From: a virus
Direction: 5' to 3' (one strand)
IMG/VR virus record: IMGVR_UViG_3300044691_000366
Coordinates: 3,174-67,173 of that record
Length of the DNA: 64,000 nt
Below, piece after piece: positions 1,871 through 24,818 of this stretch. The notes beneath the pieces were generated by a model. That model had not been told where the DNA came from and did not search any database. It worked only from the letters and a program-made list of their open reading frames with translations. Both the position numbers and the translations under genes were made by a program. How positions within the stretch are numbered: position 1 is the first letter of the stretch; every line of letters starts with the position of its first letter.

Positions 1871-4800
1871 GCGGCGACCTTCTCGCCGATATCCACAGGA
1901 CAAGCTCCAGAAGCGCAATCGATATGTTCAAGGCCAATATCCTCCATCATGTTGCTGGCGGCGATCGCCGCCGCAATGTGCTCGTATTCCTCCTTGTTGA
2001 CGGCGCTCTCGGGCAGATACTCGTAGGCGGACTTGTCCTCCTGCGGCATCACCGAGCAGCAGCGGATCTTGAACTGACCTTCGATCAGGGTGTCCCAGAA
2101 GCGATCGAAGGAGATCTTCTTCGGATCGTATTTGAGGGTGTAGGAGACCTGGTTGCCGGTCTCGGCGAGCGGCGTGACGCCGTCTTCCTCGACGCCGGTC
2201 AGCCAGTATTTCTCCAGCAGCTCCAGGAAGCGGTATTGCTCCTCGGGCGTTGCTTCGGAGGCCGTGACCACCCAGGCGCCGCCGTCCAGCTCGCAGATCG
2301 CAGGGCGGGTCGGGAAGCCCACGATCGTCGTGCCGGAATAGGTCTTGAGATGCTTGATCGGGTAGCCCTTAGATTCGTATTCCTTGACCAGTGGATCGTC
2401 GTTGCGGAACTGCACCCAGCGGACGAACTCCCGCATGGTCGGCAGATGCGCGCCCTCCGTCAGACCGAACAGCTTCGATGTGGTGCCCGCGGGTTTGAAG
2501 GTTGTGTTGGTGTGTGGAATGGTAACGCCGAGTGTCATGGCGTATGTCATCGACTCATCGACGATGGCACGCTTGAACCGCGACAACGTCAGCCACATTT
2601 CCTTGGACTTCTCCTCGTCGACGATATCGTGCCAGGTGAAGCCGAAGCGGGCATAGGCCCACTCGTGAAAGCCGGTGATGCCGACGCCGATGCGGTTGGT
2701 CCGCGTGACCTCGCGCTTGTAGATGCAGTCCATCAGGTTGGTGCGGATCAGCGCCCGCGTCGCAGTGCGGAAGGCGTCCTCGGCGTCCGTGTCCCAAGCC
2801 CACTCCTGAACCTCGGGCGAAAAGTCCGAATTTCGAGCCAGCGTGCCCGCATGAAACGGCACCACGTCGGCGATGACGCAGTAGCCGCCCAACAGCAGAA
2901 GCACGATCTCGCCGCAGGGGTTCGTGATGACCTTGTATTTCAGGCCGATGCACGCCTTCGCCAGTGCCTGCATCAGGGGCAGGCTCTCGGCGTCGACCTT
3001 GAACTTGGCGCCCTCGGCGAACATGCCGTCGAGATATTCGGGCAATCCTTCGTCGTTCTGGGTCAGCCGGTCCTGGTTGATGATCCCAGGCTCACCGGTG
3101 CCGTCGTTGTAGGCGGCCGCGGCGATCGCCTTCATGACGCGGAAGGCGTGAACCTCCATTTCCGTGGCGTATTTGTCGGCCACGATGTAGGCGAGCCACT
3201 TATCCGTGTGGACGGTGCTGGTCGCGCCTTCCCCAAAGAAACGCCGCATTAGCGCCCGCACTTTAAGCACGCCGTTCCTAAAATCGGCATCGACAGTGAC
3301 CGAATTATTTGACGACCAAAGGAAGCCGCCGCGCTTGACCGCGATGAAGTCGAAAATGGTCTTGTCGCGCCAGTTCTTGGTGGACATGCGCGCCGCGCGC
3401 CGGGCGCCGCCGACGAGCACGCATTCGGCCGCATAGTGGTCGGCGTAGATCGCTGCGCGCCACGGCGCCATGCCGGCGTCACGGAGCTTCGCAATATTGG
3501 CGATCGCGGCCATCAGCGGCCCCGGACCCGACGCCGGGCGACCCTGCATGCCCATGATCGGCGCGTCGCGCGGGCGGACAATCGAGAAGTCCAGGATCAG
3601 CACTTCGTCGCGCCGTTCCTCGAACGCCATGCGCTCAACGATCTCGATCGCCTTGGCCCAGCCCTCGCGACTGTCGGGGACGACATAAGTGGTGACCTTG
3701 CGGTCGGCGTAGAGGTGCTTGGCGTCCTTCACGGTCGAGTAGCCCTGGATCAGGCGCTTCTCGACGTCCTGGTGGTTCCAGTCGATCGCGCAGACTACGA
3801 TCGGCATCTGGTTGAGATCGGCGACGATCATGTCATCGTCATAGGCGCGGCCGACGCCGGCGCCGTTGAGCAGCAGATAAAACAGCAGGAAGGTGTTCGC
3901 CGCGGTGGCGCAGTTGCCGGTCAGAAGACCATTGGCGAGCACGAAACCCTGAGTGACCGGCTCCTCGACGCAATAGACCTCGTCGTATTCGAAGTCCTCA
4001 ATGCCTCGAACTTTTACGAAAGTCTCGCGGGTGAGCCTGATCGTGTAGAGCGTTTTTCCGTTGTCAAAGCCTGGGTGGATGCGTTCACTTCGATCATGAA
4101 CGGTCATGCCGACAATTCGATATCCCGCATAGGCAGCGTATTCCCGAAGCCAATCAATAGCGGCCTCGTTTGACGTGCTGATCTCAATGCCGGGCCGGTC
4201 ATAGGTTTTGGAACCATCCGCGAGCCACCAGCCCTTGATAAAGCCTGCGACATAGCTCGGATCGACCGTGAACGGCACTTCTTTCCAAAACCGCTTCTTG
4301 CCGACGTAGACGACAGGATCGCCGCCGGCGCTTTTTGGATAGGAGACGCCGAAACCATCAAAGAGTGAGAGATATTTCTTGTCAGCGCCGCAAAGCCGGA
4401 TCCCGAGATAATCTCGCCCCTGACACGCCATACCGTCGTGATAATCGTTGCGCCGCTTATGCGATGAACCGTCGCCAAAAATCAGACCGTGTCGAATTGC
4501 CTCATCGTCCTCATCTTCGAGAAAGACGGGGTTCTCCAGCACGTCGCCAACCTTGAGCGTCGTGGTCACCGTGCCGTCGCGCAAGAACCAACGATGGTTG
4601 GCTGTTGCGATCACTTCCTGCGACGTGCGACTCATTGGCCCCGACAGGCCGCCGAACTTGATCCGGAAAAGCTCCTGGGTGCCGTATGATTTGACCGCGG
4701 CCGGGCGCCACACGCCGTCGCGCGCCTTCACAGTGACCGTTTGTCCGACGATAGTGTCGATTGCTACCGGACCATGTTCGAGCGTCAGAATCTTCGTGTC

Positions 4801-19666: not shown

Positions 19667-20203
19667 TTATTCCTTGCTTGCGACGCGCGCCTTGGCGCGT
19701 TCGAGAATGGCTTCGCGTGCGCTCTGCTCCATGATGCGAAACTCGCCGCTTCGCTCCTGACGTGAGTCATGCCCCTGCTGTTCGAGCATGCCCTTGCGCT
19801 GATGAAAGGCTTCGACAGCGACGGCACAGTTGGCGGCGATCTGCTTTGCTTCGTTGAGGCCCTTCTCCAGGGCGATCACCAGCGGGTGGGCCGTTACACA
19901 GGCGGCCAGATAGGGCTCGGTGAACTTCGAGCCCTTTTCGACGGCGCCGTCGCGGGTGTTGCGATAGACCTTGGCTTCGGCGATTTTCAGCTTCAACTTG
20001 ATGTCGTTGACCTGATGCACAGCCATCGCGTGGAGATCGCCATAGTAGCTGGCGAGTCCGGCTTGCTTCATGAAGGCGTCGTTCAGATCGACCATCGAAT
20101 AGGTCAGATCCGCCTTGAACTTCTCGGCGTCGATGAAGTTCTTGACCTTGAAGACGATCGGCTTCCTCGGCTCGATCGGCAGCGTTTCAGCGATATCGGT
20201 CAT
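19667..20203 (-). CDS. Helical protein, possibly UvsY-like recombination mediator
   Basis: Coiled helical pattern, KFTE motif, genomic context. Confidence 0.5.
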   Translation of the reverse strand: MTDIAETLPIEPRKPIVFKVKNFIDAEKFKADLTYSMVDLNDAFMKQAGLASYYGDLHAMAVHQVNDIKLKLKIAEAKVYRNTRDGAVEKGSKFTEPYLAACVTAHPLVIALEKGLNEAKQIAANCAVAVEAFHQRKGMLEQQGHDSRQERSGEFRIMEQSAREAILERAKARVASKE

Positions 20204-20218
20204 TCGTTCCTCGTGAAC

Positions 20219-20232
20219 AGTCAATTCTTACT
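20219..20232. promoter_or_regulatory. 14-bp palindromic operator
   Basis: AGTCAATTCTTACT; promoter motif at 20240-20261. Confidence 0.78.
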
Positions 20233-20260
20233 GTTTAGTTATAGCAAAAAGATCGAGGGT

Positions 20261-21415
20261 TTAGTCGATCAGCGTGGCGACCTGGGCGAACACCTCGTTG
20301 AGGGGTATCTGCTTGTCCGGGTCGTAGAAAATCTCGCCGGGGTTGAAGCCGATGATCATGTTGGCATCGAGTTCCTTGTTGTAGACGATCTTGCCCGCGG
20401 CGTCGGATGCCTTGCCCTTCAGATCGGGCATGAAGTGGCGAACGATCGCAGAGCCCATCAGCACGATCACGGGCGGCTTGATCAGGTCGATTTCCATGCG
20501 CAAGTAGGGCAGATATGCCTCGATCTCCTGGGCCGAGACCTGTTTGCCGGACTTCGGCCGCTTGATTAGCGCGGTCCAGTAGGCGTCGCCCCGGTTCAAC
20601 CCGGCTTCGGCGAGCGCTACAAGGGTGGTGCCAAAGCTGTCGCCCCAGGCCATCTGGCCGATTCGCTCCTCCTGGCTCGTCGGGCAGTCGCTGATGACCA
20701 TGAAGCGCGCCTGCTTGCCGAGCATCGGTTTGATCTGCTCGCCGTCGTCCTTCTTCTCGTCGCGGTATTTGACGACGATCTCGCCGAGCTTGGCCGCGGT
20801 GTATTTGTCCTTCAGCATGCCGCGGTCGACCGGCACGGTGTCGGTGATCAGCCCTGGGATCAGATCGCGCTGATCCTTGATGCGCAGCGGGTCGCGCTGC
20901 GCGGGCAGGGTCGGGTCGATGCTCGAAAAGGCGCCGATTTTGTTGAGGATTTCGACATGACCCTTGTGACAGGCCCGCTTTTCGACTCGACTGTTGAGGT
21001 CTGCGACACTTTCGAACTTTTTGGACCCTCTTGCTTTGACGATCGCTTCCGAGGTTCGCGACGCGATGCCCTTGATGCGGTTGAAGGGGATGCAGAGCAG
21101 GGTGTCGGTGAGAATTTCGAACTCGCCCGAGGACATATTGATGTCGGGGAGCATGATCTCGACGCCGGCAGCCTGAGCATCCTTTAATATGGCGGGCAAT
21201 TCTTCCGCCTTAAGCAAGCTTAGCGCTGCGGCGAAGAACTCGACCGGGAAGTTGGTCTTGAGCCACATCACCTCGTAGGAGATCAGCGTGTAGGTTACGG
21301 AATGGGCCTTATTGAAGCCATATCCCGCAAACCCTTCGATCTTGTCGAAGAGGTCACCGGCAAGAGTGGGTTCGAGCGCCGGCTTGATCGAAGTCTTGGA
21401 GACGATTTTAGGCAT
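20261..21415 (-). CDS. dnaE: DNA polymerase III alpha, C-terminal half, fused to a UDG-like domain
   Basis: FAGYGFNKAHS, WLKTNFPVEF, PDINMS, HhH IKGI; C-terminal YWTALIKR...EIDLIKPPVIVLMG (UDG family 4-like). Confidence 0.9.
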   Translation of the reverse strand: MPKIVSKTSIKPALEPTLAGDLFDKIEGFAGYGFNKAHSVTYTLISYEVMWLKTNFPVEFFAAALSLLKAEELPAILKDAQAAGVEIMLPDINMSSGEFEILTDTLLCIPFNRIKGIASRTSEAIVKARGSKKFESVADLNSRVEKRACHKGHVEILNKIGAFSSIDPTLPAQRDPLRIKDQRDLIPGLITDTVPVDRGMLKDKYTAAKLGEIVVKYRDEKKDDGEQIKPMLGKQARFMVISDCPTSQEERIGQMAWGDSFGTTLVALAEAGLNRGDAYWTALIKRPKSGKQVSAQEIEAYLPYLRMEIDLIKPPVIVLMGSAIVRHFMPDLKGKASDAAGKIVYNKELDANMIIGFNPGEIFYDPDKQIPLNEVFAQVATLID

Positions 21416-22088
21416 ACCGAACAAGATCCTCGAATGGGAAGTTTGCAGCCAGAAGCCATGCTCGCTGATCGAGACACTGGTCTTTGCGCATAGCGACGTG
21501 GAGTAGGGTGTGATGTTTCGAGGAAAGCACCAGCAGATTGATCGGCCCGTTATTCTTTCGATCGAGGTCGACGTGGTGAACCTGTTCCTTCGTGAGCAGC
21601 TTTCGCTTCAGGAGCGCCTCTGCGACGCGACGGTGTTCATATTTGCGCTGTTTGCCGCCGCCCGACTGCTCGTAGCCGCCTGTGACGTGTCCGCCCTTCC
21701 ATCGATTCGATTGTTCGCGAAACTTGCCGCGTTTGTTAGCGGCTTGAAGCGCACGAAGCTCGGAGCTACCCCGGCGCATCTTCTTTTCGTTGCGGTCTCG
21801 AATCGAGCCTGGAACTCGAATTCCCTTTCGCGCTTGAGGCCGAATACCTTCGCGACACAAAAACCCTCGATCGCGAAAAATGCCGTGTGCCTGAAGGTAG
21901 CGCCGTGTCTGAATGACGCTACATTTCATCTCCGCAGCGAGGACATCGATGATCGCGGCGTCGTCTATGTAGCGCCCGCGCGCCCACATCGGGTCGATAT
22001 GGCCCATCAGCTCGCCACGAGCCATTTTAGCCTGCTGATCGAGTTTGATGGCGTTCGCTTTAGAGTTGCCGCGCGCTGTATCTGACAT
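21408..22088 (-). CDS. Free-standing HNH homing endonuclease between the dnaE halves
   Basis: WKGG, YEHRRVAE...VHHVDLDRKNN...NL. Confidence 0.88.
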   Translation of the reverse strand: MSDTARGNSKANAIKLDQQAKMARGELMGHIDPMWARGRYIDDAAIIDVLAAEMKCSVIQTRRYLQAHGIFRDRGFLCREGIRPQARKGIRVPGSIRDRNEKKMRRGSSELRALQAANKRGKFREQSNRWKGGHVTGGYEQSGGGKQRKYEHRRVAEALLKRKLLTKEQVHHVDLDRKNNGPINLLVLSSKHHTLLHVAMRKDQCLDQRAWLLAANFPFEDLVRYA

Positions 22089-22096
22089 ACTGTAGT

Positions 22097-24484
22097 TTAC
22101 TGCTTAACTACAGGAAAACAAAGAGAAAAATCGCTTTTCTCTATTTCTTCCAAGCTGTGAAATCCACCTTCCTCGACCTGGTATTTTTCGTTGGATCGAA
22201 GGTCTACGGTCGAGCCATTGTCTAGCTTCACCGAGAAGATTTCAGCCTCACAGCCCGAAATAAATTTCCCCTTCTCCTTCGCCATTTCGAGCGGGAGCTT
22301 TTTACCCATGATCTTGCGGAGCTTGTCAGCATCCGGCCCTGAGTAGCCCGCAAGCGCTCTGGACGCCTGCATCACTTCTTCCTGGTATACGAAAACGCCG
22401 TATGTATCTTTCAGAATTGGTTCGAGCAGCGGGTGATCATACTCAATGGCTTCGACGCCCTGCTTTCTTTTGAAAAAGCTATCCATCATGCCCGACTCCA
22501 TCGGACCCGGTCGATACAGCGCGGTCGCAGCCGTAATATCGTCGAAGGTGATGACGCCGTCCTTGCCGAGTTCCTTCAGTAGCCGGCGCATGCCGCCCGA
22601 GGCGAACTGGAAGACGCCCGTCGTCTTGCCGGCAGCGAACTGCGCCAGCACCTTTTCGTCGTCGAGCGGAATGCGAAGCAGGTTGACGTGCTTGGCGTGT
22701 CGCTTCTTGATGTATTTGAGAGTCAAATCAATGAGATCCAGGGTCGATAGGCCCAAAATGTCGACCTTGACCAGGCCCTGATCCTCGACGATGCGCTTGT
22801 CCCAATTGAGGGTGTCGCCGTCCTTTCGCCGCTCGATAACGCCGCGCTCGGTCAGATCCACTCCGCCGACGACGATACCGGCGGCGTGCCGCCCGTAGTT
22901 CGTCATGGTGTCTTCGAGCCGCACCATCACGTCCCAGGGGCCGGGTGCGCCCGGCGTGCCCTTCCATTTGTCGCGGAAGGCGCCGATCTCCGACACCATG
23001 TCGGCCGCCTTGGGCAGCGGGATGTTGGCGCCGTGCGCTTTCGGGGTGAATTTCGAGCAGCGGTAGTCGTCCTCGCTCAGACCGAGGGCCTTGCCGACGT
23101 TGCGAATCGATGAGGCGGCTGCGAGGGTCGAGAAGTTGGAGATGCCGGCGACGCGCGCCTGACCATACTTCCCGATCAGGTATTCGATTATTTCGTGGCG
23201 TCGCTCGGACATGAAGTCGAGGTCGGCGTCGGGAAGATCGATTCGGTCGGGGTTGATGAACCGCTCAAAAAGTAGGCCAAAACGAATGGGATCACAATCA
23301 GTGATGCCAGTAAGGTAAGCAACAAGGGAACCTCCCACGGAGCCACGGCCAGGGCCGACAAGGATGCCATTTGTTTTCGCATAGTCGACGATGTCCTTGA
23401 CCAGGAGAAAGTAGCCGGAGAAGCCCAGCTTCTTGAGAACGCTCAATTCGTAGACTAGCCGCGGGGCATAAACGTCCCGCAGTTCGTCCGTCGTCGGCTT
23501 GTGCCCGAATGTCGTCTGACCCATTCGCGCGCCCCAGCCCTTCTTACAGGCGATCTTGAGGGCCTCGTATTCGTCGGGCGCCATGACGGGCAGCGCGATC
23601 GGGGCTTTCGACCAGGACCAGGTGATCCGGGCGACGAAACCATCGGTGTTTTCGAGCGCGATCTTCCATTGCCCAGTGCTGACGGTCATGTATCGCCCAG
23701 GCAAACGTTTGGCCGAGGCAACCAGCTCCCCGAGAAACTCTTTCTGACCCATCGGATGCAGGTTGCGCATCTCAGGCGCCTGGATCCACAGATCGCTCAT
23801 GCGGATATTGCGCGAGACGGCGTTCTTGATGTCAGCGGCGTCCGCGCCGCCCTGCTCGTAGAGCACGGGACGGGTCGCGAGCGTGGGCAAACCCTGGTCG
23901 CCGGCGATCTTGAGCGCTTCGGCGTTCATGCGGTCGAAATAGGGTGTGTCGATCGGCGTCAGCGTCATAAAGACGCTTTCCTTACCGATCAGCGCCACGA
24001 TGTTCTTGAACACGATGCCAGCTTGCGGATGGGCAACCAGGCTGTTGGTGTCGCCCGAGGCGATCGCGACGTCATCGCCGGTCAGATCACCGAGCGTGTC
24101 GAGAAAATCCTGAATGCCGAGCTTCGCCGTGTAGTAGAAATGCGCCTCATCGTTGGCGAGCGACAGCAGCTTGAACAGCGCCACCAGGCCCTTTTCCGAG
24201 CGCACGTAATAGGTCACGAACCATTCGCCGGGCAGCTTCGACTTTTCGCCCTTCGGCTTGCGCCAATTGTGATCGTCCACCAGGCGCAGCCGGCAGCCGA
24301 CGATCGGTTTGATCTCGGCCTTCTTAGCCCGATTGGTGAAGTCGATCAGCCCGGTGACGGACATGGTGTCGGTTAAACCGACAGCAGTGGCGCCGGCGAG
24401 CTTCGCCTGGTCGATCAGCTCCTCGACCGTGAGAATGCTTTCGCCGATCGAGAAGGTGGAGCGCGCTGCGAGAACGGTATGCAT
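22097..24484 (-). CDS. dnaE: DNA polymerase III alpha, N-terminal half (PHP, palm, part of fingers) with a 51-aa intein-like tail
   Basis: GPGRGS, FERFINPDR, PDADLD, GRHAAG, KVDILGL, RPGP, YQE, ADKLRK. Confidence 0.95.
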   Translation of the reverse strand: MHTVLAARSTFSIGESILTVEELIDQAKLAGATAVGLTDTMSVTGLIDFTNRAKKAEIKPIVGCRLRLVDDHNWRKPKGEKSKLPGEWFVTYYVRSEKGLVALFKLLSLANDEAHFYYTAKLGIQDFLDTLGDLTGDDVAIASGDTNSLVAHPQAGIVFKNIVALIGKESVFMTLTPIDTPYFDRMNAEALKIAGDQGLPTLATRPVLYEQGGADAADIKNAVSRNIRMSDLWIQAPEMRNLHPMGQKEFLGELVASAKRLPGRYMTVSTGQWKIALENTDGFVARITWSWSKAPIALPVMAPDEYEALKIACKKGWGARMGQTTFGHKPTTDELRDVYAPRLVYELSVLKKLGFSGYFLLVKDIVDYAKTNGILVGPGRGSVGGSLVAYLTGITDCDPIRFGLLFERFINPDRIDLPDADLDFMSERRHEIIEYLIGKYGQARVAGISNFSTLAAASSIRNVGKALGLSEDDYRCSKFTPKAHGANIPLPKAADMVSEIGAFRDKWKGTPGAPGPWDVMVRLEDTMTNYGRHAAGIVVGGVDLTERGVIERRKDGDTLNWDKRIVEDQGLVKVDILGLSTLDLIDLTLKYIKKRHAKHVNLLRIPLDDEKVLAQFAAGKTTGVFQFASGGMRRLLKELGKDGVITFDDITAATALYRPGPMESGMMDSFFKRKQGVEAIEYDHPLLEPILKDTYGVFVYQEEVMQASRALAGYSGPDADKLRKIMGKKLPLEMAKEKGKFISGCEAEIFSVKLDNGSTVDLRSNEKYQVEEGGFHSLEEIEKSDFSLCFPVVKQ

Positions 24485-24588
24485 TACTGTTTCACCTGAT
24501 AGCAAATAGGAGCTTTCTCCAGCTTGTCGACGATCTGACCGATGTAGTAGAGACTGATAATCATGCCGACGAATGTTATAGTTTTCAT
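24484..24588 (-). CDS. Small membrane peptide
   Basis: SD GAGG, MKTITFVG..., TAATG-coupled to dnaE. Confidence 0.45.
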   Translation of the reverse strand: MKTITFVGMIISLYYIGQIVDKLEKAPICYQVKQ

Positions 24589-24818
24589 GTGAACCTCACT
24601 GCTGAATAGGTGCCGGTGACCGCGCCTGCGATTGCAGGCAACAGCATCCAGGGATTTGTCGTGTAGCTGATGGCAGCGAAGCCACTGAGCCCGATGATGA
24701 CGCCGGCATAGCCGGACGCTTGCCAGGGCCATCGAGCGGTGATCGCCTGAGTGTAGCGCGCCCACACAAAATCGAGCGTGAACAGCGCCGCGAATACCGT
24801 GATGCCCTCGATGATCAC
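24585..24818 (-). CDS. Small multi-TM membrane protein
   Basis: GTGA overlap; hydrophobic. Confidence 0.5.
   Translation of the reverse strand: MIIEGITVFAALFTLDFVWARYTQAITARWPWQASGYAGVIIGLSGFAAISYTTNPWMLLPAIAGAVTGTYSAVRFT

Follow-up and report, generated by a model that had tools for sequence, protein, structure and literature searches.

The window analyzed here, a 64,000-nucleotide stretch of viral DNA, carries the DNA polymerase gene dnaE in two pieces with an HNH nuclease gene between them, and the locus raises the question of how two such pieces might act as one polymerase. An earlier note, made from the sequence alone, had proposed that the two chains are held together by a remnant of an intein that can no longer splice. 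The analysis presented here favors that whole reading, of a split DnaE with a non-splicing half-intein clasp joining its two chains, as a likely one.

Architecture of the interrupted dnaE locus

The three open reading frames claimed for the locus, DnaE-N, the HNH gene and DnaE-C, were all confirmed on the minus strand (Table 1). Pfam likewise put the reported break of the fingers region where that domain ends, the DNA_pol3_finger profile being matched over positions 1–164 of 166 and ending at residue 754 of 802. Its stated distance of about 17 residues upstream of the FNK motif was roughly right, the measured distance being 20–24 residues. The N-half frame spans 22097–24505 with an alternative TTG start at 24505; read from the ATG at 24484 it comprises 795 aa, as does the window's protein P0001 in the database, and it matches PHP, DNA_pol3_alpha (1.4e-67) and DNA_pol3_finger (1.5e-52). 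The C-half frame (20261–21424, ATG at 21415) encodes 384 aa with matches to HHH_6 (8.8e-17), UDG (3.4e-9; UDG-like domain at about 20336–20716), PHROG 405 DNA polymerase and PHROG 4335. A Logan contig from an independent assembly, though probably of the source sample, spans 20261–22579 with zero differences.

Table 1 Features of the split dnaE locus, with positions in the window
Feature	Position	Strand	Description and basis
DnaE N-half, native part	22244..24484	-	PHP, palm/NTPase, fingers up to ...KGKFISGCEA; ORF, Pfam and alignment to intact relatives
48-aa tail (EIFSV...VVKQ)	22100..22243	-	homologous to the second (block-B, "N2") lobe of DnaE split N-inteins
N-half stop codon	22097..22099	-	within the loop between the arms of an 8-bp inverted repeat; HNH start 8 nt further on
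Free-standing HNH homing-endonuclease gene, 226 aa	21408..22088	-	Pfam, PHROG, homologs; frame differs from both dnaE halves
11-aa leader of the C-half (MPKIVSKTSIK)	21383..21415	-	putative counterpart of the first C-intein strand ("C1")
DnaE C-half, native part and stop codon	20261..21382	-	rest of fingers with GYGFNKAHS, HhH, C-terminal UDG-like domain
Terminator-like hairpin	20251..20270	-	directly after the C-half; consensus scan only

Between the three frames, a consensus scan of this strand detected neither terminator-like nor promoter-like sites, and the fold of the inverted repeat at the N-half stop did not rise above that of shuffled sequences (z 0.25). The ATG of the leader overlaps the HNH stop codon (ATGCCTAA), and translation of the C-half is probably coupled to that stop. 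Third-position GC amounts to 0.77 and 0.82 in the native halves, 0.48 in the tail and 0.62 in the HNH gene, and the lower values of the latter two were counted in favor of the preferred reading as a sign of foreign origin.

The HNH protein matches PHROG 21964 "HNH endonuclease" (1.3e-18) and, at 19.2 bits (E 9.4e-4), falls below the curated cut-off of 24.8 for Pfam HNH_3. Nine free-standing homologs are 50–61% identical to it, and the residues H171, H172, N184, H193 and H197 of the catalytic motif (HH...N...H...H) are invariant among 12 homologs. The gene takes the place that the endonuclease has in inteins, and the site has a patchy distribution of empty, fused and occupied alleles; the enzyme may home into alleles free of the nuclease.

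Intein ancestry of the tail and probable intein origin of the leader

Tail and leader boundaries were set from six aligned split loci together with intact relatives. Both segments are foreign to DnaE as the earlier note had claimed, though shorter than it had stated: the tail has 48 aa and not 51, because "GCEA" is native DnaE (the Cys formerly assigned to the tail being a native residue), and the foreign part of the leader has about 11 residues and not 13.

On its own, the window's tail has weak intein likeness (E 0.41), and single tails matched no Pfam or NCBIfam intein model. With a profile built from the tails of five independent split loci, DnaE-intein chains were the top 14 of 46 matches in the PDB, 13 of them at E 6.4e-5 to 0.007 and one at 0.16, the best other match following at 0.23; the alignments are gapless, place profile positions 1–42 on intein residues ~55–98 and end before the C-intein part. 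A 14-row profile gave a best intein match of 4e-5 and also matched KDM4 tudor domains (E 0.005–0.06, positions 6–30). In a search of 1.84e9 proteins with four tails (hmmsearch), 37 matches were obtained at E<=1e-3, and the 31 examined comprised 20 DnaE half-intein tails, six tandem-repeat proteins and five true N-inteins, which carry a block-A Cys or equivalent and block-B xxH and were recovered at 1.5e-5 to 8.4e-4. The gapless match to the second lobe of a DnaE N-intein, proposed in the earlier note, was thus reproduced by profile search, and the significant similarity of the family profiles shows homology with the HINT superfamily over one lobe only. Tails of the other loci are 14–35% identical to that of the window.

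Position, a short motif and the model of a fused homolog, rather than a significant sequence score, suggest that the leader corresponds to the first C-intein strand. True phage C-inteins start with a similar K-I-x-S strand, and the resemblance noticed earlier is further borne out by an AF2 model of the fused insert (pLDDT 83.8; a fused homolog, not the window's own pair), residues 3–60 of which superpose on 52–116 of chain 4kl5_A. That chain, the Npu DnaE intein, is the best structural match of the model (Z 5.9, rmsd 2.8 Å, 58 residues; by the comparison tool's own caveat, a common arrangement may account for a Z below 8), and the first 21 rows contain nothing but inteins, while Foldseek returned no match to the model at E<=0.001 (best 0.07). 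The complete pseudo-two-fold HINT fold is not reached, the insert having 55–63 aa and its model matching Npu 52–116 only. The fused form is, with confidence, predicted to adopt a half-HINT fold, the scores being modest.

In the window the tail is acidic (5 K/R against 10 D/E) and the leader basic (net charge +3), as had been observed. The complementarity was found not to extend family-wide, being clear in four of seven tail–leader pairs and weak or absent in the other three, and hence electrostatic capture is not a property of the family.

Loss of the splicing apparatus

The nucleophile at position 1 of an intein is Cys or Ser, rarely Ala, and at the corresponding position the half-inteins would have E, S or G. 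All 17 half-intein sequences begin 0–3 residues before the block-B lobe and lack the block-A lobe, for which six of six true N-inteins carry ~55–65 more residues. The block-B His occurs in none of the 17, the window reading RSNE in place of TxxH; true N-inteins read SSKH, SMKH, TLDH, SANH, SMEH and SLDH. None of the ten leaders has blocks F and G, a terminal Asn or a +1 nucleophile; they enter native DnaE after 7–11 residues, while true C-inteins (L274–L278) run on as ...DLEV..DHNF...SN/SHS. These observations agree with the absence of a splicing apparatus asserted in the earlier note, and by sequence the module would not qualify as a protein-splicing intein. Protein splicing cannot occur because the other HINT lobe has been lost along with every catalytic residue, and with the splicing parts missing, the module therefore remains in the mature enzyme.

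Distribution of the module and selection on its fused form

Close Rhizobium and Methylobacterium relatives have a single intact dnaE of 1118–1135 aa; L001 and L002 (1135 aa each) and L004 (1118 aa) are uninterrupted at the site and have ~820 bases fewer. Six split loci carry both tags at the same site, namely the window, two further IMG/VR sequences (L007, L008), a metagenome (L123), an Aeromonas plasmid (L005) and E. coli plasmids (L006); one more locus (L122) has the leader only. In SSU5 and Cyrano the module is fused in frame without a nuclease, and in PLSDB the fused form is present in 551 of 924 matching records (at least 80% cover of the 84-aa fused query). Acinetobacter plasmids have a different HNH gene (NUMOD4 type) in the same slot, and L263 and L205 are split without a nuclease, with a 75-nt spacer carrying AAGAGG only. 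In some of the plasmids (L006, L205), PGAP annotates no CDS over the halves.

The two tags are found with the HNH gene, without it and as a fused insert, the three states covered by the co-conservation test that the earlier note had proposed, and the same site and module recur in distant elements, including alpha- and gammaproteobacterial ones. Rather than being peculiar to the window, the half-intein module is a resident domain found widely in this family of polymerases. Over 41 distinct fused sequences, dN/dS is 0.084 for the insert and 0.024 and 0.023 for its flanks, and the fused insert is under purifying selection.

Relation to known split genes

The locus shares its host protein and the fingers region with the naturally split DnaE inteins (cyanobacterial Npu/Ssp; phage "fractured" DnaE at FNK/S, L274–L278), from which its site is 20–24 residues apart. 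Its tail and the second lobe of their N-inteins are homologs with the same end point, its leader is like the first strand of their C-inteins, and its nuclease lies in the intein endonuclease slot. It differs from them in insertion site and in being without the block A lobe, Cys1, TxxH, blocks F and G, the terminal Asn and the +1 nucleophile.

Fractured genes, in the available part of Dassa et al. 2009 (PMC2677866), are replication genes present as two adjacent ORFs, mainly in phages and with dnaE among the hosts, in which a free-standing homing-endonuclease gene lies between intein-derived ends. The window's dnaE is likewise broken in two around a nuclease gene with intein-derived ends. The split inteins described there retain six HINT motifs and five catalytic residues and their nucleases are GIY-YIG or Vsr-like, whereas the window's flanks do not form a catalytically complete split intein and its nuclease is HNH. 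Another related case is nrdA-a / mobE / nrdA-b of phage Aeh1 (Crona et al. 2011, PMC3045599), in the excerpts of which an essential gene is interrupted by the gene of an HNH-family nuclease, and foreign C- and N-terminal tails acquired along with it are required for activity, with neither RNA nor protein splicing taking place. According to the same excerpts, the NrdA fragments pair without the tails, which act in dimerization of the heterodimers, and the tails were speculated to be degenerate intein remnants and matched nothing. The window's dnaE too is split by an HNH gene with foreign tails at the break; in contrast to the Aeh1 tails, its tags can be traced to an intein, and their function as a clasp is putative. 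No paper on a half-intein clasp in a split DnaE was found in the literature.

Proposed mechanism and alternatives

We propose that a cassette has entered the dnaE of this soil phage or phage-plasmid, an RHEph10/SSU5-like element, in a loop of the fingers flanked by ...KFxxG[AC]xx and [NQD]G[LM]...; it would consist of a 48-aa homolog of the N-intein second half, the HNH gene and an 11-aa equivalent of the first C-intein strand. With the cassette in place, the polymerase would consequently be made as two polypeptides from one operon. Tail and leader would together represent one of the two pseudo-symmetric HINT lobes (~52–116 of the Npu DnaE intein), the other having been lost, and most likely the leader strand completes the beta-sheet of the tail by strand complementation, tethering the halves non-covalently at the break. 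We infer that tail and leader bind in trans and that polymerase function depends on this binding.

The tags could instead be a decaying intein remnant without a job, carried along with the nuclease, while the halves pair via their large native interface. The pairing of tailless Aeh1 NrdA fragments (in the excerpts of PMC3045599), the position of the break at a Pfam domain boundary and the unconserved charge complementarity would all suit such a relic. It is nevertheless rather unlikely, as the module has been kept across the deep divergence of the tails and of their alpha- and gammaproteobacterial carriers, the fused form has a predicted compact fold and is under strong purifying selection (dN/dS 0.084), and split alleles free of the nuclease persist with both tags retained.

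That the split gene is a pseudogene, with replication of the element left to the polymerase of its host, is very improbable, even if the missing PGAP features in L006 and L205 could be read in that way and the record of the window is 59% complete (CheckV), so that other polymerases are possible. Both halves are open, over 795 and 384 aa, and their domain sets are full; the C-half starts at an ATG of its own with GAGGA upstream, stand-alone C-halves have a PHROG family (4335), and the arrangement recurs in many lineages with frames intact. It is barely credible that the halves are rejoined into one chain, whether through a group I intron, by translational bypass or by some novel splicing chemistry. 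In its favor, HNH genes are frequent in phage group I introns and the window's two halves happen to share one reading frame. Against it, that relation holds in only two of the six split loci, the N-half ends at a stop and the C-half begins at a start of its own, and a nucleophile, a terminal Asn and a block-B His are lacking. A group I intron with an HNH ORF was considered and rejected on those separate stops and starts and on the lack of any Rfam intron match at E<=10 across 20000–24800.

The non-splicing clasp may be part of something more general. The N2–C1 half-HINT would then be a self-sufficient fold-upon-binding tag/catcher kept after the death of the intein, acting in cis as a fingers insert of hundreds of SSU5-like plasmids and in trans in split DnaE. 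Nucleases of at least two unrelated HNH families would use it as a standing landing pad, and the activity of the split polymerase would need the 11-residue strand docked in its 48-residue partner; this broader proposal is about as likely as not.

Implications

The locus would be the first nuclease-split gene whose assembly tails trace by sequence and fold to an intein, and it makes the intein-remnant speculation of 2011, as worded in the excerpts of PMC3045599, testable. It also offers a natural small (48 + 11 aa), putatively non-covalent split-protein pair of which many diverged and possibly orthogonal versions exist. For annotation, the split dnaE of SSU5-like phage-plasmids of E. coli, Klebsiella and Acinetobacter, now left without a CDS or named UDG-family or hypothetical, is probably a working two-chain polymerase. 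Overall, the finding illustrates a possible fate of an intein that loses catalysis: being unable to leave, half of it may be kept as a domain and docking device.

Organization of the split dnaE locus

The dnaE locus of the window comprises three tightly consecutive ORFs, in which an HNH gene lies between the N-half and the C-half of the polymerase, with 8 nt separating the N-half stop from the HNH ATG and the ATG of ORF 3 overlapping the HNH stop (ATGCCTAA) at a distance of 11 nt from an upstream GAGGA. Translation from an ATG at 24484 within ORF 1 yields 795 aa, as long as the database entry for this very protein (P0001), and the DNA_pol3_finger profile of Pfam is complete in the N-half up to position 164 of 166, ending at residue 754. 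No promoter-like or terminator-like sites were found between the three ORFs on the minus strand, and a terminator-like hairpin follows ORF 3. Both dnaE and this HNH gene occur once in the window's record, an IMG/VR virus contig which comprises 67,173 bases and is 59% complete.

Features of the split dnaE locus and its cassette in the window
Feature	Position	Strand	Size	Assignment
ORF 1 (DnaE N-half)	24505-22097	minus	802 aa	Pfam PHP, DNA_pol3_alpha and DNA_pol3_finger
Foreign tail of N-half	22100-22243	minus	48 aa
Inverted repeat	22074-22097	minus	8 bp, perfect	CTGTAGTT/AACTACAG
ORF 2 (HNH)	22088-21408	minus	226 aa	Pfam HNH_3 (weak); PHROGs HNH endonuclease, 1.3e-18
HNH segment shared with run X2	21837-22055		219 nt
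ORF 3 (DnaE C-half)	21424-20261, ATG at 21415	minus	387 aa	Pfam HHH_6 and UDG-superfamily; PHROGs DNA polymerase part
Foreign leader of C-half	21383-21415	minus	about 11 aa
C-terminal domain of C-half	20336-20716	minus		UDG-superfamily (Pfam UDG, 3.4e-9)

A Logan contig across 20261-22579 showed 0 differences to the window; as it probably derives from the same source sample, it shows only that a second assembler arrived at the same junctions. Contigs of sequencing runs X2 and X3 match small portions of the window only. One of these, 219 nt long and assembled from a second soil sample (run X2), matches a segment of the HNH gene without differences, so the same nuclease gene is present in the sample of another study. 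At the C-terminus of the DnaE C-half, a UDG-superfamily domain replaces the usual OB and tau-binding end, as it does in the intact dnaE relatives; in Acinetobacter plasmids the entire C-half is annotated as 'uracil-DNA glycosylase family protein'.

At the DNA level, the window is most similar to RHEph10-like phages of Rhizobium and to ~117-kb plasmids of Methylobacterium, Shinella, Sinorhizobium and Pararhizobium. Intact dnaE occurs as a single ORF of 1135 aa (L001, L002) or 1118 aa (L004), and alignment with the two halves of the window shows these relatives to be continuous across the site (...KGKFVEGCVATVDCTPEWAGLLFDKIEGFAGYGFNKSHS...), which indicates an insertion of about 0.84 kb in the window. 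At third codon positions, GC amounts to 0.77 and 0.82 for the native halves but falls to 0.48 for the tail and 0.62 for the HNH gene, and these low values fit a recent import of the cassette. In the Rhizobium beringeri plasmid pRlX6 (L003, 1197-4566), dnaE is annotated as two CDS broken elsewhere, 1197-2243 for a PHP-domain protein and 2248-4566 for dnaE, with no intervening nuclease gene; either a further split or a frameshift could underlie this.

Recurrence of the split and boundaries of the insert

Relatives of the HNH protein led to further split dnaE loci, namely an Aeromonas jandaei plasmid (L005), E. coli SSU5-like plasmids (L006), IMG/VR contigs L007 and L008, and metagenome contigs L122 and L123/L124. 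dnaE flanks were present in 2 of 80 viral loci and 3 of 80 metagenome loci, and in none of 35 genome loci. L123 and L124 are two copies of the same split dnaE locus, 108,012 bases from each other on one metagenome contig of 216,877 bases; this contig probably represents a circular genome of ~108 kb that is doubled head to tail.

The break falls between ...KFxxG[AC]xx and [NQDP][GA][LM]... in every split locus. The N-half tails measure 43-48 aa and follow the pattern h-x-V-x-L-x-D-G-S/T...K-Y/F...G...E-E, and the C-halves start with M-(x)-K-I/V-x-S.... Since the aligned split loci identify 'GCEA' as native DnaE, the foreign parts of the window are reduced to the tail and leader of the sizes tabulated. 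The split DnaE with a foreign tail and leader, described in the earlier note, was confirmed, with slight corrections to the sizes which that note had assigned to both peptides.

Homology of the tail to DnaE split N-inteins

Single-sequence scans of the window's tail and leader against Pfam and NCBIfam gave no matches. Against the PDB, the tail alone placed a DnaE intein at rank 2 (E 0.41) amid leucine-rich-repeat chance matches, in a gapless alignment of query residues 2-44 on chain residues 55-97. The sole match of the tail in a word-based search of 5.8 billion proteins was the window's own protein, so close relatives of this tail are rare, the nearest (P0014) being found by hmmsearch.

A profile built from five tails gave 46 PDB matches at E<=10, of which the top 14 are all DnaE inteins (7qil, 6.4e-5; Ssp 1zd7, 0.003; Npu 4lx3, 2keq and 4kl5, 0.004-0.006) and the best unrelated entry stands at 0.23. 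All 14 alignments are gapless, with profile positions 1-42 on intein residues about 55-98, which bears out the gapless match to the second lobe of the Npu DnaE N-intein that had been proposed in the earlier note. A 14-row profile including the fused forms described below retrieved 13 DnaE inteins at 4e-5 to 0.003, and KDM4 tudor domains at 0.005-0.06 too, the latter over positions 6-30 only.

An exhaustive hmmsearch of 1.84 billion proteins with four tails retrieved 37 matches at E<=1e-3, of which 31 were inspected; the other six (P0021, P0024, P0031, P0040, P0044, P0048) each contain 4-23 short stretches, as do the inspected repeat proteins. The inspected matches comprise 20 further DnaE ends or inserts of this type, 6 tandem-repeat proteins with artefactual summed scores, and 5 true N-inteins (P0028, P0039, P0042, P0045, P0046); three of the latter visibly occupy the ...FNK|C or ...FNA|C site of DnaE and possess both a first lobe and a block-B xxH. 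In the joint alignment the tails correspond to the last ~45 residues of the true N-inteins and share their end point, which is the split point of natural split inteins and the endonuclease position in inteins. Judged by this profile homology, the tail represents a fragment of a DnaE split intein. Among the true N-intein proteins, the DnaE-like N-half P0028 (1160 aa) contains two inteins: a complete cis intein that carries a LAGLIDADG-like insert, and a terminal split N-intein at ...FNA|C.

Absence of the splicing apparatus and alternative origins

The first lobe of about 55-65 residues, which holds block A, is absent in 17 of 17 half-intein sequences, as is the block-B His; block B of the window reads RSNE versus SSKH, SMKH, TLDH, SANH, SMEH and SLDH in true inteins. 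True C-inteins from phage 'fractured' dnaE loci (L274-L278) read M..T[KR]I[QK]...G-IKKTIDLEV..DHNF...SN|SHS. The ten leaders have just the first strand (K-I-x-S...) in common with these and then continue as native DnaE, with block F, block G, the terminal Asn and the +1 Cys/Ser/Thr absent from all ten. The absence of splicing residues noted earlier thus holds for every element concerned, and on these sequence signatures the module is not an intein, yet it is homologous to half of one.

Other readings of the locus were weighed against the same data. A group I intron was rejected, for Rfam models matched the region 20000-24800 at E<=10 in just three places, all by chance and outside the cassette. 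The frame shared by both halves of the window might have pointed to a former in-frame intein, and this was rejected because the frame is shared in just 2 of 6 split loci. The resemblance of the leader to the native end of the N-half (PKIVSKT... vs GKFISGC...) suggested a diverged duplicate, a candidate dropped after the leader family was aligned with true C-inteins. As for the inverted repeat around the N-half stop, directly before the HNH start, a role as translational control hairpin for the HNH gene is not supported, its fold energy being not better than that of shuffles (z 0.25).

States of the module

The homologous dnaE loci can be arranged by whether the module is absent, split or fused. 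The site is empty in the Rhizobiales relatives. It is split with the HNH family of the window in the window itself, in L005-L008 and L122-L124, and, out of 30 PLSDB records that match the HNH, in 26 plasmids of Enterobacterales or Aeromonas. Acinetobacter plasmids are split in the same slot with an unrelated NUMOD4-type HNH gene; in an Acinetobacter baumannii plasmid (L204, 3196-3771) this gene (PHROG 1492, 5e-50) lies exactly between tail and leader. The identical slot of two unrelated nucleases signifies one landing site for two nuclease families.

Split alleles devoid of a nuclease carry a ~75-nt spacer with AAGAGG ahead of the C-half ATG (L263 from IMG/VR and the Klebsiella plasmid L205), and look as though a nuclease gene had been deleted there and the split had persisted. 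The spacers, at about 3130-3215 in L263 and 3150-3225 in L205, contain three in-frame stops before that ATG.

Finally, tail and leader occur fused in frame as a ~55-aa insert of an otherwise intact DnaE, for instance in phages SSU5 and Cyrano, Klebsiella phages, Yersinia pMT1-type plasmids and Salmonella plasmids. An 84-aa fused query matched 924 PLSDB records, 551 of them with at least 80% coverage in one piece, a coverage also reached in 9 of 12 phage records. Of the 68 IMG/VR loci, 60 are apparently fused, 56 by regex (53 of a 63-aa type, 3 of a 67-aa type) and 4 taken as fused from a contiguous 252-nt tblastn match of 80-81% identity. The remaining 8 have a longer, split-type match; L263 is the one read, and L264-L269 and L273 are assumed to be alike from equal match length and identity. 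All three arrangements that the earlier note had put forward for checking co-conservation (tags with the HNH gene, without it, or as a fused insert) were therefore found.

Fold and constraint of the fused form

The 63-aa SSU5-type insert was modelled with AlphaFold2 from a 14-row alignment (mean pLDDT 83.8, pTM 0.63), giving four predicted strands and a short helix followed by a final strand (residues 49-57), which corresponds to the leader. Foldseek returned no match to this model at E<=0.001, but DnaE inteins fill its ten best rows (E 0.07-0.78). The top 21 rows of VIA-align are likewise all inteins, the best being the Npu DnaE intein 4kl5_A (Z 5.9, rmsd 2.8 A over 58 residues) with model residues 3-60 on chain residues 52-116, i.e. 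the second half of the N-intein and the first strand of the C-intein. As a Z below 8 can mean a common arrangement, according to the warning of VIA-align, the structural match supports the sequence evidence and is no stand-alone proof. The Nei-Gojobori dN/dS, pooled for 41 distinct fused sequences, was 0.084 for the insert and 0.024 and 0.023 for the 150 codons on either side; the fused insert is constrained, less so than the polymerase core.

Proposed mechanism

Most probably, the module retains one lobe of a HINT domain, and split alleles carry the last strand of this lobe, the leader, on the other polypeptide. In the simplest reading, the leader strand would complete the sheet of the tail and so tie the DnaE halves at the break with no covalent chemistry. 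According to a review (PMC11766414, citing Shah et al. 2013), split-intein assembly starts when an N-intein segment that is disordered and often anionic captures the cationic C-intein, after which the rest collapses, and strand completion by tail and leader would agree with this. Net charge in the window is -5 for the tail and +3 for the leader. Such complementarity is clear in 4 of 7 pairs and weak or absent in 3, so electrostatics is not the conserved principle. A complex prediction from alignments of the tail and of the leader (residues 1-30), run without controls, scored 0.10 (mark 0.32) and speaks neither for nor against binding. The non-splicing half-intein clasp suggested in the earlier note is supported by the tail homology, the missing splicing residues and the recurring states; that the tags bind in trans, and that the polymerase depends on such binding, we infer.

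The HNH gene would presumably be the mobile agent that enters nuclease-free alleles, and this reading fits both the patchy HNH distribution and the second nuclease family in the same slot.

Comparison with known systems

Dassa et al. 2009 (PMC2677866) describe 'fractured genes', among them three dnaE loci in which complete, catalytically competent split inteins surround a free-standing GIY-YIG or Vsr-like nuclease gene, a layout in common with the module of the window. L274 (4127-4405) and L276 (4114-5079), whose split inteins are complete, are likewise true fractured dnaE loci; the endonuclease ORF between the halves measures 322 aa in L276 and is reduced to its last 93 codons in L274, which looks like nuclease decay underway. 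At the break made by mobE in Aeh1 nrdA, the foreign tails were shown by Crona et al. 2011 (PMC3045599) to be essential for activity, and these authors speculated that such tails might descend from a degenerate intein, no similarity having been seen. The module shares this non-splicing logic and, unlike Aeh1, has a visible intein ancestry.

The supplementary DnaE loci of Dassa 2009 (Table S1, Figure S1) aside, no published description of a half-intein DnaE module was found in the full-text literature, and the sole mention of 'intein' in PMC8914359 is an unrelated reference. Overall, the half-intein DnaE module is relevant to inteins, homing endonucleases and phage replication.
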